A stretch of 64,000 bases of DNA from NCBI GenBank assembly GCA_934130355.1, contig CAKOXV010000005.1, positions 18,690 through 82,689 on the forward strand. The letters run 5' to 3'. Under the pieces are notes generated by a model, which was given only the letters and a program-made list of their open reading frames with translations, made no database searches and was not told where the DNA came from. Source of the DNA: an uncultured Clostridia bacterium (GTDB lineage: Bacteria; Bacillota; Clostridia; TANB77; CAG-508). The translations under genes were made by a program, and so were the position numbers. Below, one piece after another: positions 1,791 through 64,000 of this stretch (position 1 is its first letter; every line of letters begins with the position of its first letter).

Positions 1791-4700
1791 ATGAGAAAAG
1801 TGAAGCTAAGCAGACAGACTTTACTGCTATTCCTTTTACTATTGCTAATAGTATTAATGGGAATAGGATATTCTGCGATAAACTCAGTAACAGGAGAAAT
1901 AGATGGAAAAGTAATTGCAGATATACAAAGTGGAGTATTTATAGCAAGTGTAGAATACAGTAATGATGTTAATGCAGATTTGGACGCTTCTACAATAAAA
2001 TATTATAAAGGAACATATCTGCAAAATACAGTAAAATTATCAGATACAGATGCTAATTCATCAATAACATATAAAGTAACAATATATAATAATTCTGATG
2101 ACTTTACCACATTCTCCGGAGTTGAATATGATGAAGAGTTTTATGATAATTCAGACATAATATTTGAAACAAGTGGCTTAGAAAAAGGGAAAACAATAAA
2201 TAAAAAAGAATCAAAAGATATATATATAACATTTAAATATAAAGATGGAGTTATTCCAGAAAATAAAATCTTAAACGCAAATTTAAGATTTAAGTTTGAT
2301 TGGATAACTAGAATGATGGTAGCCAATCGAAATGACTCTAGTGCCACATATCTAAGAGGAACAATCACAAAAGATAAAATCGAAACAATAAATTTTGCTA
2401 GAGGAAGCACAATATCTGATGAAACAATATCAAGTTTTGATGCATCTGAAAAAGAGAATCAAACTATAATAGGATATTATACAGATATGGATGGTAATGG
2501 ATTATATGAATTAACATTTATGAGTGAAGGAATAATTGCGGCAAATGTAGATGCTTCATATTTATTTGGAGACATGACAAATTTAAAACAAATACTGTTT
2601 GACAATTTTTCTACAAAAGGTGTAACAAACATGTTTAAGATGTTTGGGGCATGTAGTGAATTAACAAGTTTGGATTTGACTAGTTTTAATACAAATCAAG
2701 TAATATCAATGTCAAATATGTTTGATAGTTGCTATAAGTTGATATCTATATATGTAAAACCATATAATGAGGAAAACAATGTGGGTTGGGTGACTTCTGC
2801 AGTAACAGAATCAAATCAAATGTTTAATGCATCAACTAATTTAATTGGAGGAAATGGAACTGAATTTGATGAAAATAATATAGATGTAAATTACGCGAGA
2901 ATAGATACAGTTGAAACTCCTGGATATTTAACAGACATTTCCGATAAACCAGTTATAATGATGAAAGGTAATAATGCTAGTGTTACTCCAAATTATTTGA
3001 GAGGGACAATTGCTAAAAACAGAATTAGAACAATAAGTTTTACAAGGGGAACCACACCACCAGAGGAAATAATAGAAAGTTTTGACGCTTCAGAAAAAGA
3101 AGATAAAAGTATAATGGGATATTATACAGATGCAGGTAATAGCGGATATAACTTGATATTTATGAGTGAATCAGTAATTGCACCAAATGTAGATGCTTCA
3201 TATCTATTTTGCAATTTGAATGTTATGAATCAAATAACATTTGATAATTTTAATACAAATCAAGTAATAGATATGAGTCATATGTTTGAAAAGTGTGAGA
3301 ATCTGAAAAACTTTGATGTAAGCAAATTCAAGACAAATCAATTAACTAACATGAGTTATATGTTTTATTATTGTAGAGGTATAACAGATTTAGACTTAAG
3401 TAATTTTAATACAAGTCAAGTAACCAATATGAGCTATATGCTTTATGCTTGTGATGGCTTAATAAATTTTGATGTAAGTAAATTTAACACAAGTAATGTT
3501 ACAGATATGAGTCATATGTTTGAGCTTTGCAATAAGTTAAATAACATAGATGTAAGTAATTTTGATACAAGCAAAGTAACAGATATGAATTTCATGTTTG
3601 AAGCATGTAAAGCTTTTACAAGCTTGGATGTGAGTAATTTTGACACAAGTCAAGTAACAGACATGGGGGCTATGTTTGCATGGTGTACTAATTTAACGAA
3701 TTTAGACTTAAACAATTTTGATACAAGCCAAGTAACAAATATGAGAAGTATGTTTGAACATTGTGATGCTTTAACAGATTTAAATATAAGCAAATTTGAT
3801 ACTAGTAAAGTAACAGATATGAGTTATATGTTTGATTTTTGTGATAGTTTAACGAGCCTAGACTTAAGTAACTTTGATACAAGTCAAGTAAATGACATGA
3901 AAGTTATGTTTCGTTGTAATAGTCTAACAAACTTGAATATAAGCAGTTTTGATACAAGTAATGTAACAGATATGAATTCAATGTTTAATGATTGCAGTAG
4001 TTTAACAAGTATAGATGTAAGTAATTTTAATACAAGTAATGTAATAGACATGACTAGTATGTTTTGGGGCTGCAGTAGTTTAACAAGCATAGATGTAAGT
4101 AATTTTAATACAAGTAATGTAACCCGAATGATTCAAATGTTTCAAGAGTGTACTAGTTTAACAAGTATAGACTTGAGCAACTTTGATACAAGTAAAGTAA
4201 TAGATATGAGATCATTGTTTAATGGTTGCAGTAAAATAACAAGTATAAATATAAGCAGCTTTGATACAAGTCAAGTAACAAATATGTGGGGTATGTTTTC
4301 ATATTGTAATAACTTAACAAGTATAGATATAAGTAGTTTTAATACAAGTCGAGTTACAGAAATGGGATGGATGTTTTCTAAATCTGCTAAATTATCCCAA
4401 ATTTATGTTAGTGAATTTTCAACTTTAAAAGTTACTAGTTCAGATCATATGTTTTATGATTGTACAAGTTTAGTAGGTGGAAATGGAACGAAATATAATT
4501 CTAGATATCAAGACAAAACTTATGCAAGAATAGACAAATTAGGGGAACCAGGATATTTTACTGAATTAACAAAGGTTAGCAGAATGATGGCAGGTAACAA
4601 TAGTGCTACAAATTATTTAAGAGGAACAATTGCAAAAAACGAAATAAAAACAATAAAATTTATTAGAGGAACTACTCAACCAGAAGGAACAGTATCAAGC

Positions 4701-6809
4701 TTTGACGCATCTGCAAATCATGATGGAAGTATAATGGGGTATTATACAGATGCTGGTGATGGTTTATATGAATTAACATTTATAAGTGATTCAATAATTA
4801 AAGCCAATACAAATGCTTCATATTTATTTCATAATTTAACAGAATTGGAAAAAATCTCATTTGCTAACTTTAGAACTTCAGATGTAACTATTATGACTTC
4901 AATGTTTCAAGGCTGTAGCAAGTTGAAAAATTTGAGTTTAGGTAATTTTGATACAAGTAATGTTACAAGAATGACACTTATGTTTTATAAGTGTAATAAT
5001 CTAGTAAGTTTAGATGTAAGCAGCTTTAATACAAGCAAAGTAGTAGATATGTATGCTATGTTTAATCAATGCAGTAACCTAACAAGCGTAGATGTAAGTA
5101 AATTTGATACAAGTCAAGTAACAAGTATGGGATTTATGTTTGGAGGTTGCCTTAAATTAGAAAGTTTAAATCTAAGTAGTTTTGATACAAGTAAAGTAAC
5201 AAGTATGACCGTTATGTTTAATCAATGCAGTAGTTTAACAAGCTTAGATTTAAAAGGATTTGATACAAGCAAAGTTACTACTATGAGTTATATGTTTGCA
5301 TATTGCACTAAATTATCCACAATTTATGTTGATGACTTTTCTACATCAGCAGTAACTGATGATGCAAATATGTTTAATGCATGTACAAGCCTAGTAGGAG
5401 GAAATGGAACGAGATACAATGCTAGTTATAAGACTAAAACTTATGCAAGGATAGATAAAGCAGGAGAACCAGGATATTTTACCCAAAAGTATAATGAAAC
5501 AGTAATGATGAAAACATCTGGAAGTGATAATAATTCAAATTACTTAAGAGGAGGAATTAAAAAAGTAAATATAGAAAAAATCAAATTTGTAAAAGGAAAG
5601 ACTCAGCCAACTGGAATAATATCAAGTTTTGATGCTTCTGAAAATCAAGATGGAAGTATAATAGGATATTATACAGATATAAATGGAAATGGCTTATATG
5701 AATTAACATTTATGAGTAATTCGACAATAAAAGCAAATGCAGATTCATCATATTTATTTATGTATTTGACAAATTTAAAAGAAATAACATTTGATAACTT
5801 TAAAACAACAGGCACAACTAATATGCTGTATATGTTTTTCTATTGTAGTAATTTAGCAAGTATAGATTTGAGTAATTTTGATACGAGTGAAGTTACAAAT
5901 ATGCAATATTTATTTGGATATTGTAGTAGTTTAGAAAGTTTAGACATAAGTAGTTTTGATACAAGTAAAGTTACAAATATGGGAACAATGTTCCTAGAAT
6001 GTTCAAAATTATCTAAAATTTATGTTGATCAATTTGCAACATCAGCAGTAACCAATTCAGGTGGAATGTTCTATGGATGTACAAATCTAGTAGGAGGAAA
6101 TGGAACAACTTATGATGCTAGTAAAAATGATGCAACTTATGCAAGAATAGACAAGTCTGGAACACCAGGATACTTTACTTTAAAAAACAAGAGTGAAGTA
6201 ATGATGATGGCAACAGAATTAAGCGGAAGTAGTTCTAACTATTTAAGAGGAACAATTATAAGAGGACAAATAGAAAAAGTAAAATTCGTTGAAGGAACAA
6301 CACCACCAACAGGAACAACATCAAGTTTTGATGCTTCAGCAAATCAAGATGGAAGTATAATGGGATATTATACAGATACAGATGGAAATGGTTTGTATGA
6401 ATTGACATTTATGAGTGATGCGATAATTATTTCAAATACAAATGCATCAGGATTATTTATGAATTTTACAAATTTAAAAGAAATAACATTTGATAATTTT
6501 AAAACAACAGGCACAACTAATATGCTGTATATGTTTCTTTATTGTAGTAATTTAACAAGTTTGGACTTAAGTAATTTCGATACAAGTAAAGTTACAAATA
6601 TGCAAACAATGTTTGCAGGATGCTCAAAGCTATCTACGATTTATGTTAAAAACTTTTCAACACTTGAAGTTACTTCTTCTGGAGATATGTTTGGAGGATG
6701 TACAAGCCTAGTAGGAGGAAATGGAACAACATTCAACTCTAGTTATACAGATGCAACATATGCAAGAATAGACAAGTCTGGAACACCAGGATATTTTACA
6801 CAAAAATAA
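1791..6809 (+). CDS. Giant surface protein of 1672 aa. N-terminal signal/anchor and conserved beta-rich domain of about 190 aa, followed by four modules of 26-residue DUF285/TIGR02167 leucine-rich repeats.
   Basis: Repeating '(L)xxLDxSxFDTSxVTxMxxMFxxCxxL' units. Each module ends 'GGNGTxYN..TYARIDKxGxPGYFT'. Signal-like N-terminus 'MRKVKLSRQTLLLFLLLLLIVLMGIGYSAINS'. Confidence 0.85.
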   Translation: MRKVKLSRQTLLLFLLLLLIVLMGIGYSAINSVTGEIDGKVIADIQSGVFIASVEYSNDVNADLDASTIKYYKGTYLQNTVKLSDTDANSSITYKVTIYNNSDDFTTFSGVEYDEEFYDNSDIIFETSGLEKGKTINKKESKDIYITFKYKDGVIPENKILNANLRFKFDWITRMMVANRNDSSATYLRGTITKDKIETINFARGSTISDETISSFDASEKENQTIIGYYTDMDGNGLYELTFMSEGIIAANVDASYLFGDMTNLKQILFDNFSTKGVTNMFKMFGACSELTSLDLTSFNTNQVISMSNMFDSCYKLISIYVKPYNEENNVGWVTSAVTESNQMFNASTNLIGGNGTEFDENNIDVNYARIDTVETPGYLTDISDKPVIMMKGNNASVTPNYLRGTIAKNRIRTISFTRGTTPPEEIIESFDASEKEDKSIMGYYTDAGNSGYNLIFMSESVIAPNVDASYLFCNLNVMNQITFDNFNTNQVIDMSHMFEKCENLKNFDVSKFKTNQLTNMSYMFYYCRGITDLDLSNFNTSQVTNMSYMLYACDGLINFDVSKFNTSNVTDMSHMFELCNKLNNIDVSNFDTSKVTDMNFMFEACKAFTSLDVSNFDTSQVTDMGAMFAWCTNLTNLDLNNFDTSQVTNMRSMFEHCDALTDLNISKFDTSKVTDMSYMFDFCDSLTSLDLSNFDTSQVNDMKVMFRCNSLTNLNISSFDTSNVTDMNSMFNDCSSLTSIDVSNFNTSNVIDMTSMFWGCSSLTSIDVSNFNTSNVTRMIQMFQECTSLTSIDLSNFDTSKVIDMRSLFNGCSKITSINISSFDTSQVTNMWGMFSYCNNLTSIDISSFNTSRVTEMGWMFSKSAKLSQIYVSEFSTLKVTSSDHMFYDCTSLVGGNGTKYNSRYQDKTYARIDKLGEPGYFTELTKVSRMMAGNNSATNYLRGTIAKNEIKTIKFIRGTTQPEGTVSSFDASANHDGSIMGYYTDAGDGLYELTFISDSIIKANTNASYLFHNLTELEKISFANFRTSDVTIMTSMFQGCSKLKNLSLGNFDTSNVTRMTLMFYKCNNLVSLDVSSFNTSKVVDMYAMFNQCSNLTSVDVSKFDTSQVTSMGFMFGGCLKLESLNLSSFDTSKVTSMTVMFNQCSSLTSLDLKGFDTSKVTTMSYMFAYCTKLSTIYVDDFSTSAVTDDANMFNACTSLVGGNGTRYNASYKTKTYARIDKAGEPGYFTQKYNETVMMKTSGSDNNSNYLRGGIKKVNIEKIKFVKGKTQPTGIISSFDASENQDGSIIGYYTDINGNGLYELTFMSNSTIKANADSSYLFMYLTNLKEITFDNFKTTGTTNMLYMFFYCSNLASIDLSNFDTSEVTNMQYLFGYCSSLESLDISSFDTSKVTNMGTMFLECSKLSKIYVDQFATSAVTNSGGMFYGCTNLVGGNGTTYDASKNDATYARIDKSGTPGYFTLKNKSEVMMMATELSGSSSNYLRGTIIRGQIEKVKFVEGTTPPTGTTSSFDASANQDGSIMGYYTDTDGNGLYELTFMSDAIIISNTNASGLFMNFTNLKEITFDNFKTTGTTNMLYMFLYCSNLTSLDLSNFDTSKVTNMQTMFAGCSKLSTIYVKNFSTLEVTSSGDMFGGCTSLVGGNGTTFNSSYTDATYARIDKSGTPGYFTQK

Positions 6810-6817
6810 AACAGAGA

Positions 6818-6860
6818 ATAGAAGTAGAAAACCAAAAAATTCTACTTCTATTTTTTTATC
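6818..6860 (+). terminator. Rho-independent terminator after the first giant repeat gene.
   Basis: Stem GAAGTAGAA...TTCTACTTC followed by a T-run. Confidence 0.7.
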
Positions 6861-6914
6861 CATAATAATACAAAATACTTTTAAATTAACACAAATAAAA
6901 ATTTAATAAACTAC

Positions 6915-6950
6915 TTGAAAAATATGCAAAGAAAATATACAATGTATAAT
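6915..6950 (+). promoter_or_regulatory. Sigma-A-like promoter (TTGAAA-17-TACAAT/TATAAT) upstream of the second giant gene. Homologous to the pth promoter segment at 10575-10610.
   Basis: -35/-10 hexamers. Segment 'tacttgaaaaata(t/c)gcaaa' is duplicated at 10571. Confidence 0.45.
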
Positions 6951-7049
6951 AATAAAATACAAAAATTAGCAATAATTTTTTACAAAATCTTATCCTAAAA
7001 TAGCGAAACATATTGAAGATTAAATATAAAAAATAAACGAGGAAAGGAG

Positions 7050-7091
7050 ATGGTGATATATCTAAAATTAGATATATCATACAAAAGATAG
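7050..7091 (+). other. 13-codon upstream ORF (MVIYLKLDISYKR) with a strong SD. Its stop codon lies 1 nt before the start of the gene at 7093. It contains the 24-bp palindrome GATATATCTAA-AA-TTAGATATATC (7055-7078).
   Basis: GAGGAAAGGAG then ATG at 7050. TAG at 7089-7091, then 'tagtATG'. Perfect 11-bp inverted-repeat arms. Confidence 0.35.
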
Positions 7092-7092
7092 T

Positions 7093-10000
7093 ATGAGAAA
7101 AGTGAAGCTGAGACAAAAAACTTTAATACTATTCCTTTTGCTATTGGTAATAGTATTAATGGGAATAGGATATTCTGCAATAAATTCAATAACAGGCGAA
7201 ATTAAAGGAATTGTAATCGCAAACATACAAGATGGTGTATTTATAGCAAATGTAGAATATGTGAGTAGTGTTAATGCAGATGTAGACAATTCAGCAATTG
7301 AGTATTATAAAGGCACATATTTGCGAAACAAAGCAAAACTATCAGATACAGATGCAAGTTCTTCAATAACATATAAAATAACATTTTATGATAATTCTAA
7401 TAGTTCTTATACATTTGTAGGAGTAGAATATGATGAAGAATTCTATGACAATGTAGACATAATATTTGAAACAAGTAGATTTGACATAGGGCAAGACATA
7501 AACAAGAATGAAACAAAAGAAATGTATATAACATTTAAATACAAAGATGGAGTTCTTCCAGAAAACAAAACTCTAAATGCGAATTTGAACTTCAAATTTG
7601 AAAAAATAAATAGAATGATGGTAGCAGGCAACAATTCTAGTGGAAACTATTTAAGAGGAACAATTGCAAAAGACCAAATAGAAACAATAAGTTTTACAAA
7701 AGGAACTACACCGCCAACAGGAGTAACATCAAGTTTTGATGCTTCTGAAAGTCAAGACAATGGCATAATTGGATATTACACAGATACAGATGGTAATGGA
7801 CTATATGAATTAACATTTATGAGTGAAGGAACAATTTTAGCTAATACAAATAGTTCATATTTGTTTTTCAAGTTGACAAGTTTAAATCAGATAACATTTG
7901 ACAATTTTGATGTAAGTGCTACAAGTAAAGTAACAGACATGAAATATATGTTTTATAGTTGCGGAGGTTTAACTAGTTTGGATGTAAGTAAATTTGATAC
8001 AAGCCAAGTAACAAGTATGAGTTATATGTTTTCTTCTTGCGGTGGTTTAACGAGTTTAGATTTAAGCAATTTTAATACAAGCAAAGTTACAGATGTGGAG
8101 TATATGTTTTATAATTGTAGTAATTTAACAAAGTTAGATGTAAGCAAATTTGACACAAGTCAAGTAACATATATGAGACATATGTTTAATGGTTGCAGTG
8201 GTTTAACCAGTTTAGATGTAAACAACTTTGATACAAGTAAAGTAACAAACATGAGTTATATGTTTTCTTCTTGCAGTGGTTTAACTGATTTAGATGTAAG
8301 CAACTTTAATACAAGTCAAGTAACAGCTATGAATAGTATGTTTGAATCTTGTAGTGGTTTAACCAATTTAGATTTAAGTAACTTTGATACAGGTAAAGTA
8401 ACAGAAATGTATAGTATGTTTGAATCTTGTAGTGGTTTAACCAGTTTAGATGTAAGCAACTTTAATACAAGCAAAGTAACAAATATGAGTGCTATGTTTT
8501 CTTCTTGCAATAGTTTAGCCAGCCTAGATGTAAGCAACTTTGGTACAAGTCAGGTAAGATTTATGAGTACTATGTTTTATGGTTGCAGTAGTTTAACCAA
8601 TTTAGATGTAAGCAACTTTGATACAAGTCAGGTAATGTATATGAGTCATATGTTTACTCAATGCAGTGGCTTAACCAATTTAGATGTAAGCAACTTTAAC
8701 ACAAGTCAAGTAAGAGAGATACAGGATATGTTTAGAGATTGTTTTGGTCTAACCAGTTTAGATTTAAGTAACTTTAACACAGCAGAAGTAACAAATATGA
8801 GTGGTATGTTTGCGAATTGTGTCGGTCTAATCAATTTAGACGTAAGCAGTTTTAACACAAGTAAAGTAACAAGTATGGGTGGTATGTTTGAGGATTGCAT
8901 AAATTTAACAAGTTTAGATTTAAACAGTTTTGACACAGGTCAAGTGAAATATATGAGTGACATGTTTGGGTATTGTAGAAAATTAACAACCATTTATGCT
9001 AAAGATTTTTCAACTTCAAATGTCAGAAATTCCTCAAGTATGTTTAACAAATGTACAAGCCTAGTAGGTGGAAATGGAACGACGTACAATTCTAGTTATA
9101 CAGATGCAACATATGCAAGAATAGACATAGAAGGAACACCAGGATATTTTACGAGACTAACAAGAATGATGGTTGCAAGCTACAGTTTTGATGGAAACCA
9201 TTTAAGAGGAACAATTGCAAAAGATAAAATAGAAAAAATAGTTTTTACCAAAGGCTCTACAGCTCCAACAGGAGCAATATCAAGTTTTGATGCTTCTGAA
9301 AATGAAGATAAAAGTATAATAGGATACTATACAGATACAGACGGAAATGATTTATATGAATTAACATTTATGAGTGAAAGCACAATTTTGGCTAATACAA
9401 ATAGTTCGTATTTGTTTTACGGTTTAAAGAGTTTAAAACAGATAACATTTGACAATTTTAATGTAAGTAATGTAAGCAAGGTAACAGATATGATAAATAT
9501 GTTTACTGGTTGTATTAGTTTAACCAGTTTAGATGTAAGTAAATTTGATACTAGCCAAGTAACAAGTATGAGTTCTATGTTTTATGGGTGTAGTGGATTA
9601 ACGAGTTTGGATGTAAGCAAGTTTGATACAAGTCAAGTAACAAGTATGAGTTCTATGTTTTATGGGTGTAGTGGATTAACGAGTTTGGATGTGAGCAAGT
9701 TTGATACAAGTCAAGTAACAAGTATGAGTTCTATGTTTTATAATTGCAGTGGTTTGACGAGTCTAGATGTAAGCAGCTTTGATACAAGTCAAGTAACATT
9801 AATGGATAGTATGTTTTCTAATTGCAGTAGCTTAACAAGTTTAGATGTAAGCAAATTTGACACAAGTAAAGTAACAGATATGAGTTATATGTTTTTTTAT
9901 TGCAGTAAATTAACAAATTTAGATGTAAGCAAATTTGACACAAGCAAAGTGACGGATATGATGCGTATGTTTTATAATTGCAGTGGTTTGACGAGTTTAG

Positions 10001-10479
10001 ATGTAAGCAAATTTGATACAAGCCAAGTGACAGATATGAGTCATATGTTTTATAATTGCAAAGGTTTAACCGGTTTAGATGTGAGCAATTTTGACACAAG
10101 CAAAGTAACAGGTATGAGGGATATGTTTTCTGGTTGCAAAGGTTTAACCAGTTTAGATGTAAGTAACTTTGATACTAGCCAAGTAACAAATATGATGCAG
10201 ATGTTTACTAATTGCAGTGGCTTAACGAGTTTAGATGTAAGCAAATTTGATACAAGTAAAGTAACAAATATGATGAATATGTTTTTTGGTTGCAGTAAAT
10301 TAACAACAATTTATGTTAAAGATTTTTCAACTTCAAATGTTACAGAGTCTTCGAACATGTTCTATGGTTGCACAAGCCTAGTAGGAGGAAATGGAACTAC
10401 GTACAATTCTAGTTATAAAGATGCAACATATGCAAGAATAGACACAGCTGGAACACCAGGATATTTTACACAAAAATAA
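7093..10479 (+). CDS. Second giant surface protein (1128 aa), paralogue of 1791..6809. The N-terminal domain of about 190 aa is conserved; two modules of 26-residue DUF285 repeats follow.
   Basis: About 85% nt identity to the paralogue over the N-terminus. Same repeat consensus and same C-terminal 'GGNGTTYNSSY.DATYARID..GTPGYFTQK'. Confidence 0.85.
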   Translation: MRKVKLRQKTLILFLLLLVIVLMGIGYSAINSITGEIKGIVIANIQDGVFIANVEYVSSVNADVDNSAIEYYKGTYLRNKAKLSDTDASSSITYKITFYDNSNSSYTFVGVEYDEEFYDNVDIIFETSRFDIGQDINKNETKEMYITFKYKDGVLPENKTLNANLNFKFEKINRMMVAGNNSSGNYLRGTIAKDQIETISFTKGTTPPTGVTSSFDASESQDNGIIGYYTDTDGNGLYELTFMSEGTILANTNSSYLFFKLTSLNQITFDNFDVSATSKVTDMKYMFYSCGGLTSLDVSKFDTSQVTSMSYMFSSCGGLTSLDLSNFNTSKVTDVEYMFYNCSNLTKLDVSKFDTSQVTYMRHMFNGCSGLTSLDVNNFDTSKVTNMSYMFSSCSGLTDLDVSNFNTSQVTAMNSMFESCSGLTNLDLSNFDTGKVTEMYSMFESCSGLTSLDVSNFNTSKVTNMSAMFSSCNSLASLDVSNFGTSQVRFMSTMFYGCSSLTNLDVSNFDTSQVMYMSHMFTQCSGLTNLDVSNFNTSQVREIQDMFRDCFGLTSLDLSNFNTAEVTNMSGMFANCVGLINLDVSSFNTSKVTSMGGMFEDCINLTSLDLNSFDTGQVKYMSDMFGYCRKLTTIYAKDFSTSNVRNSSSMFNKCTSLVGGNGTTYNSSYTDATYARIDIEGTPGYFTRLTRMMVASYSFDGNHLRGTIAKDKIEKIVFTKGSTAPTGAISSFDASENEDKSIIGYYTDTDGNDLYELTFMSESTILANTNSSYLFYGLKSLKQITFDNFNVSNVSKVTDMINMFTGCISLTSLDVSKFDTSQVTSMSSMFYGCSGLTSLDVSKFDTSQVTSMSSMFYGCSGLTSLDVSKFDTSQVTSMSSMFYNCSGLTSLDVSSFDTSQVTLMDSMFSNCSSLTSLDVSKFDTSKVTDMSYMFFYCSKLTNLDVSKFDTSKVTDMMRMFYNCSGLTSLDVSKFDTSQVTDMSHMFYNCKGLTGLDVSNFDTSKVTGMRDMFSGCKGLTSLDVSNFDTSQVTNMMQMFTNCSGLTSLDVSKFDTSKVTNMMNMFFGCSKLTTIYVKDFSTSNVTESSNMFYGCTSLVGGNGTTYNSSYKDATYARIDTAGTPGYFTQK
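9532..9765 (+). repeat. Three near-identical tandem 78-bp (26-codon) repeats inside the second giant gene.
   Basis: 'DVSKFDTSQVTSMSSMFYGCSGLTSL' is encoded three times with 1-3 nt differences. Confidence 0.85.
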
Positions 10480-11218: not shown

Positions 11219-12397
11219 ATGATAGAACTTATAGTAAACAAAACACAAGAAAATAAAACAATAGCAGTTATAGAAAATGGAAAATTAGTAGAAATATATG
11301 AAGAAAATGAACAAAATAAAAAAGCAAGAAATGAAGGAAACATTTATATAGGAGTAGTAAAAGATATAATTCCAGGAATGCAAGCAGCATTTATAGATAT
11401 AGGAACAGAAAAAAATAGCTTTATACATGTAAAAGATGTAATACCACAAGTTGATGAAAAAGTAGAAAAAAGAATAGAAACAAAAATTAAAGAACAAGTG
11501 AAACCACAGCAAAAAATACTAGTACAAATCCAAAAAGATAGTAATGATAAAAAAGGTGCAAGAACATCAACACATTTAAAATTAACAGGTAAATATGTAA
11601 TATTAATGCCAAACACTACAATAGTCACAATATCACAAAAAATAACAGACGAAAATGAAAAAGAAAGACTATTAAAAATTATAAAATCAAAATTGCCAGA
11701 AAACACAGGAGCTATTTTAAGAACAGCAGCTGAGAAAAAAACAGAAAAAGAGCTAGAACAAGACTTAAATCAACTTATTAAAAAATGGCAAAAAATAAAA
11801 GAAGAATTTGATAATTCAAAAGTGGAGCCAAAGCTATTATATACAAGCCCTAATATTGTAGAAAAAATAATATTAGATATGCCAGAAAACAAAATAGAAA
11901 AAATAATAGTAAATGAACAAAGTGAATACGAAGAACTTAAAAAGAACTTAGAAGAATTGCAAGAAAAAAATATAAAGCTAGAAATAAAACAAGATTTATT
12001 AGAAAAATATGAATTAGAAAAGCAAATAGAAAAAGCAAAACAAAGAAAAATATGGCTAAATTGCGGAGGATTTATAACAATAGACTCAACAGAAGCATTA
12101 GTTGCAATAGATGTAAACTCAGGAAAATTTACAGGAAAAAGTAATCTAGAAGATACAATATACAAAGTAAATTATGAAGCAACAATAGAAATAGCAAAAC
12201 AATTAAGATTAAGAGATATTGGTGGAATAATAATTATAGACTATATAGATATGCATAAAGAAGAAAACAAAGAAAAAATCGAGAAACTTTTGAAAGAATC
12301 ACTAAAACAAGACAGGGCAAAAACACAAGTAGAAGGATTTACAAAACTAAACTTAATGGAACTAACAAGAAAACATATATGTAGTCATAATAGTTAA
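11219..12397 (+). CDS. rng: Ribonuclease G/E-family endoribonuclease (S1 domain plus catalytic domain).
   Basis: S1-like N-terminus. 'GARTSTHLKLTGKYVILMP' and 'ALVAIDVNSG' (the DVNSG catalytic motif). Confidence 0.75.
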   Translation: MIELIVNKTQENKTIAVIENGKLVEIYEENEQNKKARNEGNIYIGVVKDIIPGMQAAFIDIGTEKNSFIHVKDVIPQVDEKVEKRIETKIKEQVKPQQKILVQIQKDSNDKKGARTSTHLKLTGKYVILMPNTTIVTISQKITDENEKERLLKIIKSKLPENTGAILRTAAEKKTEKELEQDLNQLIKKWQKIKEEFDNSKVEPKLLYTSPNIVEKIILDMPENKIEKIIVNEQSEYEELKKNLEELQEKNIKLEIKQDLLEKYELEKQIEKAKQRKIWLNCGGFITIDSTEALVAIDVNSGKFTGKSNLEDTIYKVNYEATIEIAKQLRLRDIGGIIIIDYIDMHKEENKEKIEKLLKESLKQDRAKTQVEGFTKLNLMELTRKHICSHNS

Positions 12398-12534
12398 CGC
12401 TAAAATGGGGACGGTCCTTTTCTTCGCGAATTTGGGGACAGACCTTTAAAATTATTTGAAAATATTATATAAACAAATTAAAAGGTCTGTCCCCAAATTC
12501 GCGAAGAAAAGGACCGTCCCCATTTTAGCTAGCG
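12398..12534. repeat. GC-rich perfect palindrome with arms of about 49 bp (arm sequence 'gctaaaatggggacggtccttttcttcgcgaatttggggacagaccttt') and a loop of about 33 nt. Member of a genomic repeat family.
   Basis: Left arm 12399-12447 is the exact reverse complement of right arm 12481-12529. Contains GGGGACGGTCC / GGGGACAGACC / TTCGCGAA sub-palindromes. A related copy lies at 63491-63540. Confidence 0.85.
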
Positions 12535-12546
12535 AGAGGTGAAAAA

Positions 12547-13920: not shown

Positions 13921-15105
13921 ATGGAAGAAAATGAAAAAGACAGATATGTTTTTGAGATTTTAGCTTTATTTGAACAAGAAATTGATGCAAAATTACAAGA
14001 AGAAAAAGGAGAAGCTGAAAGGATAAAATATTATGAAAAATTCAATATAAATGGAATTGACTTTGAAAATATATTTATAACAACAGAAAGAGATGAAAAA
14101 GGAAAAGTCAGCTACCATGTATATTGTGGAGGTTCTTCAAATGAAATATTGTCAATAGATGACAAAGGAAATGTAACAATAAAAAATGAAGAATTAGGAA
14201 AGTATTTAGGCGAAGATGTCGATTTAGAGAAAACAATGTCTGAAAATGAAAAAGACCCAAAAGGCTTAAGAGGAATTTCTGAAAAAATGAAGCAAGAAGA
14301 AGAAAAAGAGCAAAAGGAACAAGACAAGCCAGATGAGCCAGACAAAGAAACAGAAAAAATCGAAGAAGAATTAGAAGAACAAGGTGAAGAAGACTTAAAA
14401 ATAAGCAAATACAGAAAAATAAAAGACACTGGAGTAGCCGAAAGAATGCCAGAAGTATTTGGTGGTTCAACAGAAAATGGTATAGCATTTTCAAACAAAC
14501 TAAACAGATATATAATCATTTCAAAAGTCAATGGAAAAACTCAAATAAATGACAATGTTGAGCCTGCAAGAATGACATGGAAAAGTATTATAAGTATAGA
14601 CCCAAATGGCCAAAGTGTTGAAAGAAAAGTGCCACATGCATTAATGAAAACAAATAGAAGTGATAAAGAAATAGCAGTTACAATTGGACAATATGGAGAA
14701 GTTGATATAGAAACAGTGGATGTGCTTCCTTGTCAAGAAAGAATCTCAAGAGAAGTAAGAGTTGATGGAGAAGGGACAGAAAAACAAGAAAGCCGTGAGA
14801 TAAGAAATCAATTTGCACAAGAAGGAAAAGAATACAAACATGATATAGCACATCGAGTTCAAGATATAGAACAAGCACAAAGAGATGCAAATCAAACAGT
14901 AGATTATGATATAACAGAAGATGACTACATCCCAAACACAGAAATGACCTGGGGAGAATTAATGGAAGAAACAGGAGAATCTTTACCTAAACTAATAGAA
15001 AGATATAATAGAGAAATGGGAAAACAAGATGCAAAATCAGAAGATGTTGTAGAAACAATAGAAAATGATTATGGCAATATATCTCATGAACATGGATTAA
15101 ATTAG
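13921..15105 (+). CDS. Hypothetical highly acidic Glu/Lys-rich protein.
   Basis: Long ORF with a good RBS (AAGGGGGAAG). Low-complexity acidic stretch. No family recognised. Confidence 0.5.
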   Translation: MEENEKDRYVFEILALFEQEIDAKLQEEKGEAERIKYYEKFNINGIDFENIFITTERDEKGKVSYHVYCGGSSNEILSIDDKGNVTIKNEELGKYLGEDVDLEKTMSENEKDPKGLRGISEKMKQEEEKEQKEQDKPDEPDKETEKIEEELEEQGEEDLKISKYRKIKDTGVAERMPEVFGGSTENGIAFSNKLNRYIIISKVNGKTQINDNVEPARMTWKSIISIDPNGQSVERKVPHALMKTNRSDKEIAVTIGQYGEVDIETVDVLPCQERISREVRVDGEGTEKQESREIRNQFAQEGKEYKHDIAHRVQDIEQAQRDANQTVDYDITEDDYIPNTEMTWGELMEETGESLPKLIERYNREMGKQDAKSEDVVETIENDYGNISHEHGLN

Positions 15106-15118
15106 AAAGAGGGATGTT

Positions 15119-16345
15119 ATGCTAATAGAACAATTAATATTTATAATAATAGCATTTGCACTATTTGTCTACATGTTCTATCAATTAATAAAAAAGAATG
15201 ACACCAAATATGTGCCAATATTAGCAATAGAAGCAGTTGGAATAGGAATAGACTTTGTTAGACTATATTTTGCTGATGGAGATATAGGAGCAGTAGCAAG
15301 AATAATAATATATACATTTTCAATAGTAATTCCAATACTAGTAATTGTGTTAGAAAGATTAAACAGCAATATGTCTGAAAAAATAAATATTTTTATTGCA
15401 AAAGTTTATTTAGTATTTGGAGATACCAAATCAGCTAAAAATAAATTACTTGAAATTGTTACAGAATACCCTGAAAGCTATCTTGGACATAAGTTATTAG
15501 CTCAAATATATGAAAAAGAAGGCGGACAAAGAAAAGCTGTTGATGAATATACACAAGCAATAGAAATAAATAAAAAAGATTATGATTCATATTACAAAGT
15601 TTCAAATCTATTAATAGATTTAGACAAAAAAGAAGAAGCAACACAACTTTTAACAAATCTATTAAGCAAAAAGCCTGATTATGTAGAAGCATCAATAACA
15701 TTAGGAGACCTTTTGATTGAACAAGAAAATTACAAAGAAGCTGTAAACATATATTTAGATGCATTAAAATATTCGCCAACAAGTTATGATTTAAACTATA
15801 ATTTAGGAATTGCATATACAATGTTAAATGACTTTCAAAATGCCAAAACATCTTATGAAAAAGCAGCTGAATTAAATACATTAGTTTATAATACTAAATA
15901 TAGTTTAGCAGAAATAGCAATGATATATAAAGAACTTGATGAGGCAGAAGAATACTTTTTACAAACAATTGAAGATGAAGAACTTTGTGCAGATGCTTAT
16001 TTAGAATTAGCAAAAATATGTATATTGAAAAATGAAAAAGAACAAGCAATAAAATATGCAAATGTTGCTATTCAAGAAGAGCCAAAAAGAATTGTAGAAA
16101 AAATTCAAAAAGATGTTACATTTGCAATAATAATTTCTAAATTATCAATACCATTTAATTTAGAAATTGAAGGCGAAGAAGAAAGAAAACATAAATTAAC
16201 GCAAAAAGAATTAAATGCAAAAGAACATCTCGAACAAATGGTAGAAATCACAAAAAAGATAGGATATAATGATTTAAAATCAGAAAGAAAAAATGAACAA
16301 GATAAAACATCACAAATAAATTTTCACAAAGAAAGAGAAGAATAA
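15119..16345 (+). CDS. TPR-repeat protein with N-terminal transmembrane helices.
   Basis: Two or three N-terminal hydrophobic helices, then several TPR-like 34-residue repeats (for example 'AYLELAKICILKNEKEQAIKYANVAIQEEP'). Confidence 0.6.
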   Translation: MLIEQLIFIIIAFALFVYMFYQLIKKNDTKYVPILAIEAVGIGIDFVRLYFADGDIGAVARIIIYTFSIVIPILVIVLERLNSNMSEKINIFIAKVYLVFGDTKSAKNKLLEIVTEYPESYLGHKLLAQIYEKEGGQRKAVDEYTQAIEINKKDYDSYYKVSNLLIDLDKKEEATQLLTNLLSKKPDYVEASITLGDLLIEQENYKEAVNIYLDALKYSPTSYDLNYNLGIAYTMLNDFQNAKTSYEKAAELNTLVYNTKYSLAEIAMIYKELDEAEEYFLQTIEDEELCADAYLELAKICILKNEKEQAIKYANVAIQEEPKRIVEKIQKDVTFAIIISKLSIPFNLEIEGEEERKHKLTQKELNAKEHLEQMVEITKKIGYNDLKSERKNEQDKTSQINFHKEREE

Positions 16346-62881: not shown

Positions 62882-62886
62882 TCTAA

Positions 62887-62920
62887 AAGAGAAGTACAAT
62901 GTGCACTTCTCTTTTTAAAC
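62887..62920 (+). terminator. Rho-independent terminator.
   Basis: Stem GAGAAGT...ACTTCTC followed by TTTTT. Confidence 0.6.
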
Positions 62921-63003
62921 TATTAAACAACTTCAATATACCCTCTTGTATAAAAAAAAATACTTTGATATAATTTAAACATAATAGCAAAGGAGGAGAT
63001 AAA

Positions 63004-63483
63004 ATGGAAGAACAATGCAAGTGCGGATGTAGCGGAAAAGACGAATTTTTAGAAGGTTTATGTGAAAAATATAAGCCAATAAAAGACAATTTAATACAAA
63101 TGTTAAACGAAGTACAAGAACATTATGGATATGTACCAATGAAAGCTCAAAAAGTTTTATCAGAATATTTAAATTTACCAATGGCAGAGATATATGGTGT
63201 AGTAACATTTTATTCAAGATTTACACTAAAACCAAAAGGAAAATACAACATAGCAGTATGTTTAGGAACAGCATGTTATGTAAAAGGTTCACAAAAAATA
63301 ATGGACAGATTAAAAGATAGATTAAAAATAGAACCAGGAGAAACAACGCCAGACGGAAAATTTTCAATAGAAGAAACCAGATGTGTTGGAGCATGCGGAT
63401 TAGCTCCTGTATTTACAGTAAATGGAAAAGTATATGGAAAAGCAACAGTGCAAATGTTAGACCAAGTCTTAGATGAGCTATAA
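63004..63483 (+). CDS. NuoE-family [2Fe-2S] subunit (24-kDa type) of an NADH-dependent hydrogenase or dehydrogenase.
   Basis: 'CLGTACYVKGS...CVGACGLAPV' thioredoxin-like 2Fe-2S motif. Confidence 0.8.
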   Translation: MEEQCKCGCSGKDEFLEGLCEKYKPIKDNLIQMLNEVQEHYGYVPMKAQKVLSEYLNLPMAEIYGVVTFYSRFTLKPKGKYNIAVCLGTACYVKGSQKIMDRLKDRLKIEPGETTPDGKFSIEETRCVGACGLAPVFTVNGKVYGKATVQMLDQVLDEL

Positions 63484-63490
63484 ATGTAAA

Positions 63491-63540
63491 AAAAAGGACC
63501 GTCCCCAAATTCGCGAAAAAAAGGACCGTCCCCAAATTAA
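63491..63540. repeat. Two tandem copies of the GC-rich unit 'GGACCGTCCCCAAATT(CGCGAA)', equivalent to half of the 12398-12534 palindrome.
   Basis: Units at 63496-63517 and 63523-63538. Identical to the right arm of the 12.4-kb palindrome. Confidence 0.8.
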
Positions 63541-63554
63541 CAAGGGGGAATAAA

Positions 63555-64000
63555 ATGAAAACTTTAGAAGAGATTAACCAAATAAGAGAAGAAAAAAGAA
63601 AAGAATTAGAGTTGAGAGTAAGTACAAAAGCAGATACAAGAGAAAAACATATATTGGTGTGTCACGGAACAGGTTGTACATCATCAGGAACGCCAGAGAT
63701 ATTAGAAAATTTTAAAAGAATATTAAAAGAAAAAAATGTAGAAAATGTTAGAGTGATTAAGACGGGATGTTTTGGACTTTGTGCAAAAGGACCAATAGTA
63801 ATTATAAGACCTGAAGATACATTTTATTCAAATGTAAAACCTGAAGATTGTGAAGAAATTATACAAAAACATATTATTGATGGAGAGACAGTAACAAGAC
63901 TTTTATGCAAAGATATTGATGGAAGTATAGTAAATAAATTAGATGAATTAAATTTTTATAAAAAGCAAAAAAGAATTGCATTGAAAAATTGTGGTGTTAT
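63555..64000 (+). CDS. Partial (3'-truncated by the window end) NuoF/HndC-like hydrogenase subunit, N-terminal thioredoxin-like [2Fe-2S] domain.
   Basis: 'ILVCHGTGCTSSG...GCFGLCAKGP' motif. RBS GGGGGAA. The ORF runs off the window. Confidence 0.6.
   Translation, partial: MKTLEEINQIREEKRKELELRVSTKADTREKHILVCHGTGCTSSGTPEILENFKRILKEKNVENVRVIKTGCFGLCAKGPIVIIRPEDTFYSNVKPEDCEEIIQKHIIDGETVTRLLCKDIDGSIVNKLDELNFYKKQKRIALKNCGV

Follow-up and report, generated by a model that had tools for sequence, protein, structure and literature searches.

The window analysed here, that is, the whole stretch of 64,000 nucleotides of Clostridial DNA, carries a long palindrome between a gene for an RNase_E_G protein and one for a RimO-type radical SAM protein, in keeping with the names rng and rimO chosen in the first-pass annotation. 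The perfect inverted repeat described there, with arms of about 49 bp and an AT-rich loop of 33 nt, is exact (12399-12447 / 12481-12529). A repeat search extends the arms to 59 nt each (12399-12457 and 12471-12529, 95% complementary, spacing 13 nt), while the innermost 13 nt (12458-12470) do not pair even then. The rng stop codon (12395-12397) sits 1 nt ahead of the left arm, and the right arm terminates in GTCCCCATTTTAGC, with the Shine-Dalgarno sequence of rimO (GAGAGGTG) 6 nt further on and its ATG (12547) 17 nt on. Each arm is one unit of a repeat, the C-rich strand of the left unit lying on the minus strand and hence antisense to rng and rimO. Two assemblies made independently from separate Hadza samples (L007 and L008) contain the same palindrome sequence, which is therefore no assembly artefact. 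A solo unit occurs in the hydrogenase operon, where the neighbours had been correctly recognised as HydC/NuoE-like and HydB/NuoF-like subunits, followed by HydA; it takes up the hydC-hydB gap, beginning 1 nt past the stop codon of hydC and leaving 4 nt free ahead of the Shine-Dalgarno sequence of hydB (AAGGGGG). The features of the two sites, and of the intergenic region upstream of hydC that is discussed below, are as follows.

12399..12457, minus strand: left arm of the palindrome, one unit (nhmmer 12452-12398, minus strand, E = 6.9e-19)
12407..12417, minus strand: left arm, outer box GGACCGTCCCC, read on the plus strand as GGGGACGGTCC
12423..12430, no strand: left arm, palindromic linker TTCGCGAA (pattern search)
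12434..12444, minus strand: left arm, inner variant box GGTCTGTCCCC, read on the plus strand as GGGGACAGACC; matches the GGGGWSAS motif (PMC3733652)
12448..12480, no strand: loop of the palindrome, 33 nt, AT-rich, separating the perfect 49-nt arms
12471..12529, plus strand: right arm of the palindrome, one sense-oriented unit (nhmmer 12476-12530, plus strand, E = 4.7e-19)
12484..12494, plus strand: right arm, inner variant box GGTCTGTCCCC (pattern search)
12498..12505, no strand: right arm, palindromic linker TTCGCGAA (pattern search)
12511..12521, plus strand: right arm, outer box GGACCGTCCCC (pattern search)
62882..63003, no strand: yunB-hydC intergenic region, an empty site at which the relatives L018/L019, L023, L024-L027 and L028 have a RAYT-like gene
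63485..63541, plus strand: solo repeat unit, sense, equivalent to one palindrome arm (nhmmer E = 8.5e-18)
63496..63506, plus strand: solo unit, first box GGACCGTCCCC (pattern search)
63510..63517, no strand: solo unit, palindromic linker TTCGCGAA (pattern search)
63523..63533, plus strand: solo unit, second box GGACCGTCCCC, 27 bp past the first

The arm is laid out as an A-run, GGACCGTCCCC, AAA, TTCGCGAA, NAAAA, GGACCGTCCCC and AAATTA, with a box spacing of 27 bp. At up to two mismatches GGACCGTCCCC occurs seven times in the window against 0.30 expected, a number reached in none of 100 shuffles (the match at 47595 is probably due to chance), and TTCGCGAA is found three times against 0.00 expected. 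The inner boxes contain GGGGACAG, an exact GGGGWSAS, and the outer boxes GGGGACGG, which agrees with that motif at 7/8 positions. Between the solo unit and a palindrome arm there are eight differences in 54 alignment columns, mostly terminal. The tandem duplication of the unit proposed for 63491-63540 holds for the 11-nt box plus AAATT, seen twice 27 bp apart, and not for the 22-mer GGACCGTCCCCAAATTCGCGAA, which occurs once. Among the supposed sub-palindromes TTCGCGAA is a true one, GGGGACGGTCC merely holds an odd-centred GGAC-G-GTCC, and GGGGACAGACC is not palindromic. Likewise the contrast of about 60% GC with a genome of about 28% describes the box-to-box core (58%, against 27.8% for the window) better than the whole arm (49%). 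On direct reading of the sequence, every box is preceded by a Shine-Dalgarno-like AAAAGGA.

Rfam at gathering thresholds identified one tRNA in the window and no match to the repeat, and a full-text literature search with the box sequences returned unrelated primer and vector matches alone. We know of no promoter, sigma-54, Spo0A-box, cre, parS/NBS or CsrA-site pattern that fits the spacing or the conserved positions of the unit. A coding origin was considered, the 27-bp period being equal to nine codons and a KKGPSPNSR frame being open, and was rejected because the frame relative to the upstream gene is not constant between copies. Pairing of GUCCCC with the downstream Shine-Dalgarno sequence, in the manner of an anti-Shine-Dalgarno, was also discarded; it is good at hydB (GGGGGA) alone and not at the other copies.

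Near-identical units were found in one of 185,579 GTDB species genomes, a goat-colon Clostridia MAG (RGIG2116), with exact matches at five loci in that MAG and at one in a JGI metagenome contig. Every copy is intergenic and scores 54-66 bits with the unit HMM (nhmmer); the copies at 63485-63541 and at loci L002-L006 are singlets, and L001 holds a three-box unit and a lone box. A 58-bp stretch of the solo site (63482-63539) is 100% identical to the goat-MAG locus L005 (3161-3218), despite an identity of 77% between the HydA proteins of the two organisms. The positions of the copies are never orthologous between genomes: within the hyd operon the window genome has a unit between hydC and hydB and none between hydB and hydA, the gap in which the unit of the goat MAG lies. 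Presence also varies between species: where RimO is 86-87% identical, the rng-rimO gaps (48 and 104 bp) lack the repeat. The genes downstream of the copies are rimO, hydB, hydA, an addA-like helicase gene, plsY and one gene running off the end of L001. On this contig the unit HMM detects two loci, both within the 64-kb window; the additional ~20 kb of flanking sequence has none, which gives a density of two loci per ~84 kb compared with four to seven per 20 kb in relatives. A scan of viral contigs with the box pattern gave no match and a protein scan only distant Y1 homologues (at most 42% identity), so that nothing points to a phage vector. Both the palindrome and the solo unit belong to a REP-like family of intergenic repeats that is small and lineage-specific.

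Sister species carry variants of the box (GGAACCGTCCCC, GAACCGACCCC, GGGACCGGGTCCC, GGGACCWGGTCCC and GTACCSGGTAC), which often occupy identical intergenic gaps of the hyd operon. A copy from another variant family is present in the goat MAG itself (L002, 2898-2951), placed in the same way as the sense-oriented window-type units, close ahead of a Shine-Dalgarno sequence. At L017 the variants consist of A5, an 18-bp stem and T5 (-33.8 kcal/mol as single-stranded DNA), the shape of a bidirectional terminator, and they are located behind spoVG, yunB, hydA and the gene following it; at L011 an element of 346 bp has arms of 116 nt. Beyond its own family, the window-type HMM scores best on the 3' flank of a RAYT-like gene (L025-L027, E = 5.7e-6), and the repeat beside the RAYT gene of L028, GGCAAAATGGGGACGGTTCTTTTTTTGCC, is close to the outer end of the window palindrome, GCTAAAATGGGGACGGTCCTTTTC.

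This RAYT-like gene, which occupies the yunB-hydC interval of at least five types of related contig (L018/L019, L023, L024-L027 and L028), encodes a Y1 HUH protein of 257-259 aa that matches Pfam Y1_Tnp (PF01797, E = 7e-12). Within NCBIfam it matches NF047646 (REP-associated tyrosine transposase) alone, with a score of 63.5 bits that is below the cutoff of 80. The HUH and Y---NP motifs are invariant in the protein family, and the protein has roughly 1,000 homologues. Searches of PDB sequences with the protein and with a 33-sequence profile gave no match, and an AlphaFold model (pLDDT 84.8), helical in its C-terminal half, has as its top Foldseek match 4ER8, E. coli TnpA-REP with a REP hairpin (E = 1.8e-7, TM 0.71), ranking above the IS608/IS200 transposases. 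In L018 the gene (6462-7241) is bracketed by inverted arms of the local repeat (6409-6470 / 7321-7382; 62 nt, 87% complementary). Repeats also adjoin the gene in L022, L023, L024-L027 and L028, on one side only in L023, and the flanks in L023 and L024 contain GGGGACAG. The RAYT proteins of L025-L027 are 84% identical to that of L023, the nearest sampled relative of the window organism; the genes for P0333 and P0326, the RAYT proteins closest to that of this relative, are flanked by repeats related, not identical, to the window type. The first-pass suggestion that a RAYT would be worth seeking is thus borne out in sister species, where a RAYT-like Y1 gene is flanked by inverted repeat copies.

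In the window genome, the expectation of a RAYT elsewhere was disappointed over the range searched. The yunB-hydC gap contains just an ordinary AT-rich terminator hairpin and promoter-like sequence, and tblastn detected no RAYT-like gene in the window, in about 20 kb of extra contig flank or in the goat-MAG loci. Because the syntenic site is empty and no RAYT gene was found, mobilisation in the window genome is a matter of inference only: the Y1 protein of the sister species presumably mobilises the repeats, and we infer that the window genome has, or lately had, a RAYT copy of its own.

The genomic context bears directly on two other origins for the repeats. They might be operators for a dimeric regulator at GGAC-N-GTCC and TTCGCGAA that controls the hydrogenase and other genes, as the palindromic sub-motifs within the unit and the presence of copies in or beside the hyd operon in several species would allow. 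This binding-site function, raised in the first-pass annotation, is disfavoured by the unrelated downstream genes, the unshared positions and the turnover of sequence between species, which is complete between sister species that conserve the operon. The sites moreover lie between cistrons, past stop codons, and not at promoters, and the inner box GGTCTGTCC disrupts the palindrome; the presence of the RAYT-like gene next door accounts more simply for the clustering of copies at the hyd operon, and we consider an operator highly improbable. Equally remote in our estimate is an origin as a MITE of some conventional DDE insertion sequence, in which the palindrome would be two TIRs with the middle deleted and the solo units would be remnants of single TIRs. 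Two arms surrounding a short non-repeat centre, and the long-armed element of L011, resemble such a structure. Solo arms are, however, the commonest form and share both ends, and the inverted arms of the palindrome are accompanied neither by a target-site duplication (the flanks read ...GTTAAC, then GCTAAAAT ... ATTTTAGC, then TAGCGAG) nor by a parent insertion sequence: the sole transposase type seen beside the repeats is Y1, with no DDE transposase among the Pfam assignments in the loci for which genes were called.

The palindrome and the single unit behave very differently on folding. The former reaches -96.9 kcal/mol as RNA (z = -17.9) and -64.7 kcal/mol as single-stranded DNA (z = -18.3), whereas single units as single-stranded DNA form no significant hairpin (-3.9 and -5.9 kcal/mol; z = -0.3 and -1.3). 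Nor is self-pairing open to the 11-nt box, since GGAC-C-GTCC leaves a centre of 1 nt; HUH-Y1 enzymes normally require a hairpin. As a transcript, the G-rich strand of the solo unit gives -16 to -18 kcal/mol followed by 6-8 U, and the sense strand -7 to -11 kcal/mol with no U-tract, the structure of the latter not being significant (z = +0.55 to -1.15). Of the eight single units, seven have the sense orientation; the six with a fully readable right flank end 0-4 nt ahead of a Shine-Dalgarno sequence, a start codon following soon after. Short operon gaps leave no other place for tolerated insertions than beside a stop codon and a Shine-Dalgarno sequence. Tight placement of this kind could also mean a selected function. 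The sole antisense copy, in L002, lies directly after pflB, with a fold of -21 kcal/mol (z = -2.6) and a U-run; it is the exception whether orientation is referred to replication or to transcription. The 3' side of the palindrome provides 4 U only (AUUUUAGC), and a consensus terminator scan called neither the palindrome nor the solo site. From these predicted folds, only the full palindrome or an antisense solo unit could plausibly serve to terminate transcription or to stabilise mRNA.

These data allow two functional explanations to be weighed. The repeats could be mainly terminators or RNA-stability hairpins, homogenised in each species by recombination, their closeness to the Y1 gene being incidental. 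The extreme stability of the palindrome hairpin between AAAAT and ATTTT, the textbook bidirectional shapes at L017 and the antisense copy right behind pflB all speak for such a function; most window-type copies are nevertheless inside operons in the orientation that lacks a U-tract, a simple terminator scan makes no call at the site, and the window genome has ordinary AT-rich terminators in gaps where relatives hold repeats. The 62-nt inverted copies around the Y1 gene, and identical sequence in genomes 23% diverged in HydA, would also be left unexplained, and we judge the explanation unlikely. Slightly less probable still is a selected cis-acting leader or intercistronic mRNA element controlling the gene directly downstream, whether as a regulator binding site, a ribosome standby site or Shine-Dalgarno-like enhancer, or a module for RNase processing and 5' stabilisation. 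The orientation and placement of the single units, repeated in the different variant family at L002 2898-2951, the Shine-Dalgarno-resembling sequence ahead of each box and the very high conservation across genomes with 77% HydA identity are what such an element would lead one to expect. Against it, the downstream genes are unrelated, no position is common to both repeat-bearing genomes even inside one operon, intervening species lack the repeat or have other sequences in the same gaps, the sense transcript has no significant structure, the placement is one that short operon gaps impose on any tolerated insertion, and Rfam offers no match.

The family fits the RAYT/TIRYT-associated repeats with a GGGGWSAS motif. 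The TIRs flanking TIRYT genes share this motif (PMC3733652; PMC6006769), and such TIR families, or TIRtrons, were described by Di Nocera et al. 2013 (PMC3733652); TIRYTs are equivalent to subclass 2.1 of the TnpA-Y1 proteins in Quentin et al. 2018 (PMC6006769) and probably to the RAYTs placed in Group 1 by Bertels et al. 2017 (PMC5581495), which have been recorded 'also in the Clostridia' (PMC5581495). Here we find a RAYT-like Y1 HUH protein distinct from the short IS200 TnpA, in relatives only; a gene within long terminal inverted repeats, in L018; the shared motif, exact in the inner boxes; and TIR copies dispersed as a repeat family. The sister-species protein is likened to TIRYTs of subclass 2.1 by such features rather than by formal class assignment: it is RAYT-like but longer, with a helical C-terminal extension, its gene is single-copy, syntenic and bracketed by long inverted repeats carrying GGGGWSAS or a near match, and the scattered copies, low to moderate in number, occur singly, as dimers and in clusters. 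Unlike known TIRYT families, this one belongs to an uncultured low-GC (28%) gut Clostridia lineage, has an arm built as a two-box direct repeat of 27-bp period around a palindromic linker, places its copies so that they hug Shine-Dalgarno sequences, and yielded no cognate gene in the searched part of the window genome. No enzyme of the TIRYT group has been experimentally shown to move its own repeats (PMC3733652, PMC6006769), and the 2018 survey listed long, HTH-tailed subclass 2.1 enzymes with no REP-like sequences nearby (PMC6006769).

The REP/BIME-like nature claimed for the repeats at the outset stands in so far as they form a dispersed, structured extragenic family with variants in sister species; the GTAG/GTGG foot and a GC-rich hairpin in each unit are missing. 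None of GTAG, CTAC, GTGG and CCAC occurs in 12385-12545 or 63475-63555, and CGTC lies inside the box, not in an unpaired foot. Resemblance to the REP and REPIN systems of E. coli TnpA-REP and Pseudomonas resides in the short extragenic singlets and inverted dimers that form long hairpins, in the repeats flanking a single-copy Y1 transposase (a REPtron, here seen for variant families in relatives), in species-specific variants and in 4ER8 as the best structural match. In contrast to those systems, the solo unit is not a self-folding, GC-rich imperfect palindrome of 20-40 nt, the copies seen (two loci in about 84 kb here, five exact loci in the goat MAG) appear far fewer than the tens to hundreds per genome typical of REPs, and the score against the NCBIfam RAYT model falls short of the cutoff. 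S. pneumoniae BOX, RUP and Correia/NEMIS elements are similarly modular (ends plus variable internal modules, here two or three boxes), intergenic, co-transcribed and hairpin-capable, but there is no sequence kinship with them and no target-site duplication, and a Y1 enzyme takes the place of a DDE transposase. The GC clusters of yeast mitochondria are likewise short, GC-rich and partly palindromic, and are scattered through the intergenic DNA of a very AT-rich genome, but they have an unrelated host and presumed mechanism, with no part for an HUH enzyme. The family adds a Clostridial case to a familiar class of genomic parasite and does not amount to a novel regulator.

Taken whole, the best explanation, to which we assign a probability of about 0.7, is that the palindrome and the solo unit are repeats of the REP kind, TIR repeats of the TIRYT type, copied by a Y1 nuclease and filtered by selection. 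A single-copy, chromosomally fixed Y1 nuclease would recognise the G-rich box (GGGGACGG / GGGGACAG) in single-stranded DNA and copy units of ~55 bp into intergenic DNA, as singles or as head-to-head dimers, the dimer at 12399-12529 representing a putative hairpin-forming, REPIN-like state and 63485-63541 the singlet. Selection would limit the sites at which copies persist. One tolerated kind of site would extend from a stop codon to the next Shine-Dalgarno sequence, in the orientation with a weak transcript fold; we propose that operons remain unbroken there because the transcript folds weakly and has no U-tract. The other would be the ends of genes, for copies that are dimeric or inverted; the transcript would there acquire a hairpin with U residues that may terminate or stabilise RNA. 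Several observations weigh against this explanation: the empty syntenic site and the negative RAYT search over the range covered, the low density of copies, the lack of a significant hairpin in a single unit, the missing GTAG/GTGG foot, and the one-sided repeats at the L023 gene.

To our knowledge, studies of REPs and RAYTs have been almost wholly Proteobacterial, and the TIRYT branch has been catalogued only, with none of its enzymes tested. We found no description of such repeats in Clostridia, or in this gut lineage, in the literature searched. The repeats have practical consequences, as they break metagenome assemblies (most of the RAYT-like genes are on contigs of ~1 kb) and, beside ribosome-binding sites, can be mistaken for regulatory motifs. 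A broader reading, which we offer tentatively and at somewhat less than even odds, is that RAYTs of the subclass 2.1 type maintain co-evolving, species-specific repeats in uncultured low-GC gut Clostridia, the gene being vertically fixed by the hydrogenase operon, the sequence being replaced in the same gaps, and copies inserting or surviving between stop codon and Shine-Dalgarno sequence. If so, the window genome would represent a natural state after loss or relocation of the RAYT, and the identical family in the goat MAG, which belongs to another subclade by HydA identity, would indicate horizontal spread of RAYT and repeats together. With many closely spaced species, each with its own repeat variants, and a syntenic single-copy enzyme gene, the clade is a good natural series, suited to following the co-evolution of a domesticated HUH nuclease with its repeats and to seeing whether the repeats decay after loss of the enzyme.

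The inverted repeat at 12399-12529 presents, in a repeat search of the window, arms of 59 nt that are 95% complementary and separated by 13 nt. The perfect palindrome that the first-pass annotation had described between rng and rimO, with 49 nt per arm and an AT-rich loop of 33 nt, is present as claimed, and its neighbours are indeed an RNase E/G-family gene and a RimO-type radical-SAM gene. The palindrome is among the most stable structures possible at such composition, folding as RNA with -96.9 kcal/mol against -29.9 +/- 3.8 for shuffles and as single-stranded DNA with -64.7 kcal/mol (z = -18.3). The window originates from a Hadza human-gut assembly, and an independent assembly of a second Hadza sample, in which RimO is 99% identical, contains the palindrome identical base for base, which excludes an assembly artefact.

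Alignment of all copies defines a unit of about 55 bp, A-run - GGACCGTCCCC - AAA - TTCGCGAA - NAAAA - GGACCGTCCCC - AAATTA(G/C/A), in which two G+C-rich 11-nt boxes spaced 27 bp flank an 8-nt linker. The first box reads GGTCTGTCCCC in both palindrome arms and in locus L001, and GGACTGTCCCC in loci L002 and L004 of a goat-colon MAG, one of whose copies contains a third box and a second linker. Among the sub-palindromes proposed earlier, TTCGCGAA is truly palindromic and the others are not; the second site (63485-63541), previously read as a 22-mer twice in tandem, is one unit, a solo copy of one palindrome arm, and lies as named between the HydC (NuoE-like) and HydB (NuoF-like) subunit genes of a HydABC [FeFe]-hydrogenase operon. 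With up to two mismatches GGACCGTCCCC occurs seven times in the window against 0.30 expected, and TTCGCGAA three times against 0.00; the GC contrast noted earlier also holds, with 58% GC in the box-to-box core and 27.8% in the window. The 27-bp period corresponds to nine codons, and the frame AAA AAA GGA CCG TCC CCA AAT TCG CGA (KKGPSPNSR) is open throughout the unit, ending at AAT-TAA or AAT-TAG (window 63484-63541; L005, a goat-MAG locus, 3159-3213); it continues the frame of the upstream gene beyond the stop codon at hydC in the window and der in L005, though not in L001 and L004. A consensus scan places a promoter-like site (GGGACA-18-TATAAT, 10/12 matches) at window 12464-12493 on the minus strand, pointing leftwards from the right arm into the loop, with its -35-like hexamer being part of a box; it may be meaningless, yet the boxes of the window-type family resemble TTGACA. 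Elsewhere in the window (5389-10451), the GC-rich 10-mers CCTACTAGGC and CTGGTGTTCC recur every ~1.3 kb, some upstream of and some within a 1128-aa ORF at 7093-10479, indicating internal protein repeats.

Among one genome for each of 185,579 GTDB species, the window-type pattern is found only in the goat-colon MAG 'Clostridia bacterium RGIG2116', at five loci; a scan of JGI metagenomes adds one contig and a viral collection gave no matches. The window species itself is evidently absent among the GTDB representatives.

Copies of the window-type repeat in the goat-colon MAG
between der and plsY
upstream of an addA-like gene
after an HD-domain gene
after pflB
between hydB and hydA

None of these sites is orthologous to a window copy: in the window the unit occupies the hydC-hydB gap and the hydB-hydA gap is an ordinary 30 bp. 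Despite HydA being only 77% identical between the two organisms, the window solo unit shares a stretch of 58/58 identical positions with L005. In species with a RimO 86-87% identical to that of the window, the rng-rimO gaps (48 and 104 bp) contain no trace of the repeat. A homologue search with the goat HydA, followed by examination of the contigs, revealed different yet clearly related repeats in sister species, many in the same hydrogenase gaps.

Variant repeats in relatives
L017: GGAACCGTCCCC, in inverted pairs with a TTTTTTGCGTAAAAAA spacer
L018: GTAAAAAGGGACCGGGTCCCTTTTTAC, with AAATTGCGT linkers
L022 and one goat-MAG site: GGGACCWGGTCCC
L023: GTACCSGGTAC together with GAACCGTCCCC
L011: GAACCGACCCC

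The relatives' variants are dense (4-7 loci per 20 kb) and many fold strongly as single-stranded DNA (-15 to -34 kcal/mol, z -3.6 to -9). This is a short intergenic repeat family that is dispersed, lineage-specific and rapidly turning over. Between dpaA and bacA, L011 contains a 346-bp palindromic element (14946-15291) with arms of 116 nt, 88% complementary, 114 nt apart and composed of GAACCGACCCC repeats. Its right arm stops just short of the bacA Shine-Dalgarno sequence, as the window palindrome does at rimO, and the element may represent either a dimer resembling a MITE or a RAYT locus that has collapsed. The goat MAG has at least two repeat families beyond the window type, one (GCTAGCATTTGGGGACAGG...) after hydA and after the next gene (L004 4400-4520, 5950-6090), the other an L022-type GGGACCWGGTCCC doublet (L002 2898-2951) whose end (CCCAAATTACC) directly precedes a Shine-Dalgarno sequence, which suggests several cognate enzymes. 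Three spaced TGTAAC / TTGTAA motifs (aaaatgtaacaaaaatgtaacacaattgtaacaa) also follow hydA in the goat MAG (L004 5950-5985) and, past the end of the window, in the window genome (L013 14182-14307); they might serve the following gene as a conserved operator or promoter element. Giant DUF285 proteins (called lengths 1,591-6,184 aa, several cut short where the contig ends) are encoded a few kb downstream of the hyd operon both in the window genome and in its relatives.

Sister species carry a single-copy, syntenic RAYT-like Y1 gene flanked by such repeats.

RAYT-like Y1 genes (257-259 aa) between yunB and hydC
L018: 6462-7241, minus strand
L019
L023: 10001-10774
L024-L027
L028: 103-882

The 259-aa protein of L018 and L019 matches Pfam Y1_Tnp (E = 7e-12) and, as its sole NCBIfam match, the model NF047646 ('REP-associated tyrosine transposase'), whose cutoff of 80 bits it misses with a score of 63.5; it retains an HVH motif and YVHRNP, both invariant in 33 homologues. 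Among PDB entries, the AlphaFold model of the homologue P0355 (mean pLDDT 84.8) best matches the REP-associated tyrosine transposase of E. coli in complex with a REP hairpin (4ER8; E = 1.8e-7, TM 0.71 on target), ahead of the IS608, IS200 and ISDra2 transposases. In L018 the gene is flanked by inverted arms of 62 nt, 87% complementary, built from that species' own repeat, and every examined Y1 locus with enough flank (L023, L024-L027, L028) has both the yunB-hydC position and adjoining repeats; the L022 gene, near a contig end, has other upstream neighbours, following a VWA-domain gene, and has repeats on both sides. Homologues number 1,085 at E <= 1e-10, mostly on ~1 kb contigs, as expected if assemblies break at the flanking repeats. 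Distant RAYT-like homologues, 25-42% identical, also occur in L029-L035, IMG/VR contigs classed as viral.

The Y1 gene is missing from the yunB-hydC position in the window genome (62882-63003), where there is only an AT-rich terminator hairpin and promoter-like sequence, and in L017, where the gap holds a triple repeat (2775-2870); tblastn did not find it in the window, the extra flanks of its contig or the goat loci. Nevertheless, the best match of an HMM of the window-type unit outside its own family lies in the sequence flanking the L025-L027 Y1 gene on its 3' side (E = 5.7e-6), AAAGGTCTGTCCC...GAACCGTCCCC, with the same two boxes ordered as in window-type units. The Y1 proteins of these loci are 84% identical to that of L023, the closest relative of the window organism by HydA (87% identity). 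The repeat adjoining the L028 gene, GGCAAAATGGGGACGGTTCTTTTTTTGCC, is comparable to the outer end of the window palindrome, GCTAAAATGGGGACGGTCCTTTTC. The window solo unit lies only ~480 bp from the relatives' Y1-gene position and may be a leftover of a former Y1-gene neighbourhood.

The C-rich strand is the sense strand of the flanking genes in seven of eight single units, which start a few bases from the upstream stop codon. Six of these, with a fully readable right flank, end 0-4 nt from the next Shine-Dalgarno sequence; the seventh, a lone box in L001, is well upstream of its gene. The sole antisense unit directly follows the pflB stop codon, and the left arm of the palindrome follows that of rng. 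On the G-rich strand the two boxes pair with each other, with additional G-U pairing, and the resulting hairpin (-16 to -18 kcal/mol) precedes a run of 6-8 U; the sense strand of a solo unit lacks a U-tract and, at only -7 to -11 kcal/mol, folds no more stably than shuffled sequence. A selected RNA leader or translation element, attractive for the Shine-Dalgarno-adjacent placement, is the main rival, but the unrelated downstream genes, non-orthologous positions, sequence turnover between species and lack of sense-strand structure weaken it. A primary role as transcription terminator fits in part, suiting the palindrome and the L017-type variants, although the majority orientation of single units is unsuited to it and the bracketing of the Y1 gene is left unaccounted for. 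An operator for a dimeric regulator or a DDE-type MITE fits poorly.

The repeats are most likely a REP-type system. The enzyme would recognize the G-rich box in single-stranded DNA and spread units, the head-to-head dimer at 12399-12529 would represent a hairpin-forming, REPIN-like state and 63485-63541 a singlet, and the cognate enzyme would be, or recently have been, present in the window genome. Placement and orientation bias would mainly reflect selection: tight operons would tolerate insertions only between stop codon and Shine-Dalgarno sequence, and only in the orientation lacking the hairpin plus U-tract, while the opposite orientation or a dimer could persist where genes end, as behind pflB and rng, and where termination would be largely harmless or useful. 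Alternatively, the enzyme may prefer certain targets, or the orientation bias may be linked to replication.

The earlier REP/RAYT proposal is largely right in kind, given dispersed repeats and a repeat-flanked RAYT-like gene in sister species, but not in its classical details, and the functions it proposes are putative. Unlike classical REPs, the window-type repeat has no GTAG/GTGG foot, its single unit forms no significant hairpin and its copy number appears low. Classical REPs also have a GC-stem design, whereas the lone box in L001 (7015-7065), AAGGACCGTCCCC, occupies a hairpin loop on an AT-rich stem, CTGCAACTTT / AAAGTTTCAG (-7.1 kcal/mol as single-stranded DNA, z = -3.3), and several variant units in relatives likewise carry a G+C-rich box at the tip of an AT-rich stem with a GC clamp, e.g. 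GCGTAAAAA-box-TTTTTACGC. The TIRtron/TIRYT class is a better match, comprising RAYT-like genes with long flanking inverted repeats, many containing GGGGWSAS, with further copies scattered in moderate numbers singly, as dimers or in clusters (Di Nocera et al., 2013, PMC3733652); the window box GGGGACAG matches GGGGWSAS exactly and GGGGACGG at 7/8 positions. Most TIRYTs have been equated with subclass 2.1, whose proteins are long and end in a C-terminal domain of HTH-like type, and near whose genes REP-like sequences were not found (Quentin et al., 2018, PMC6006769). Group 1 RAYTs are 'also found in the Clostridia' (Bertels et al., 2017, PMC5581495), Di Nocera et al. (2013, PMC3733652) make no mention of Firmicutes or Clostridia, and our literature search yielded no account of repeats of this type from Clostridia. 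Systems of this kind are known, but for this host group we found no earlier description. The main value lies in a natural series of close species that have distinct repeat variants and an enzyme gene in synteny, among them the window genome, in which that gene is missing from its usual place.
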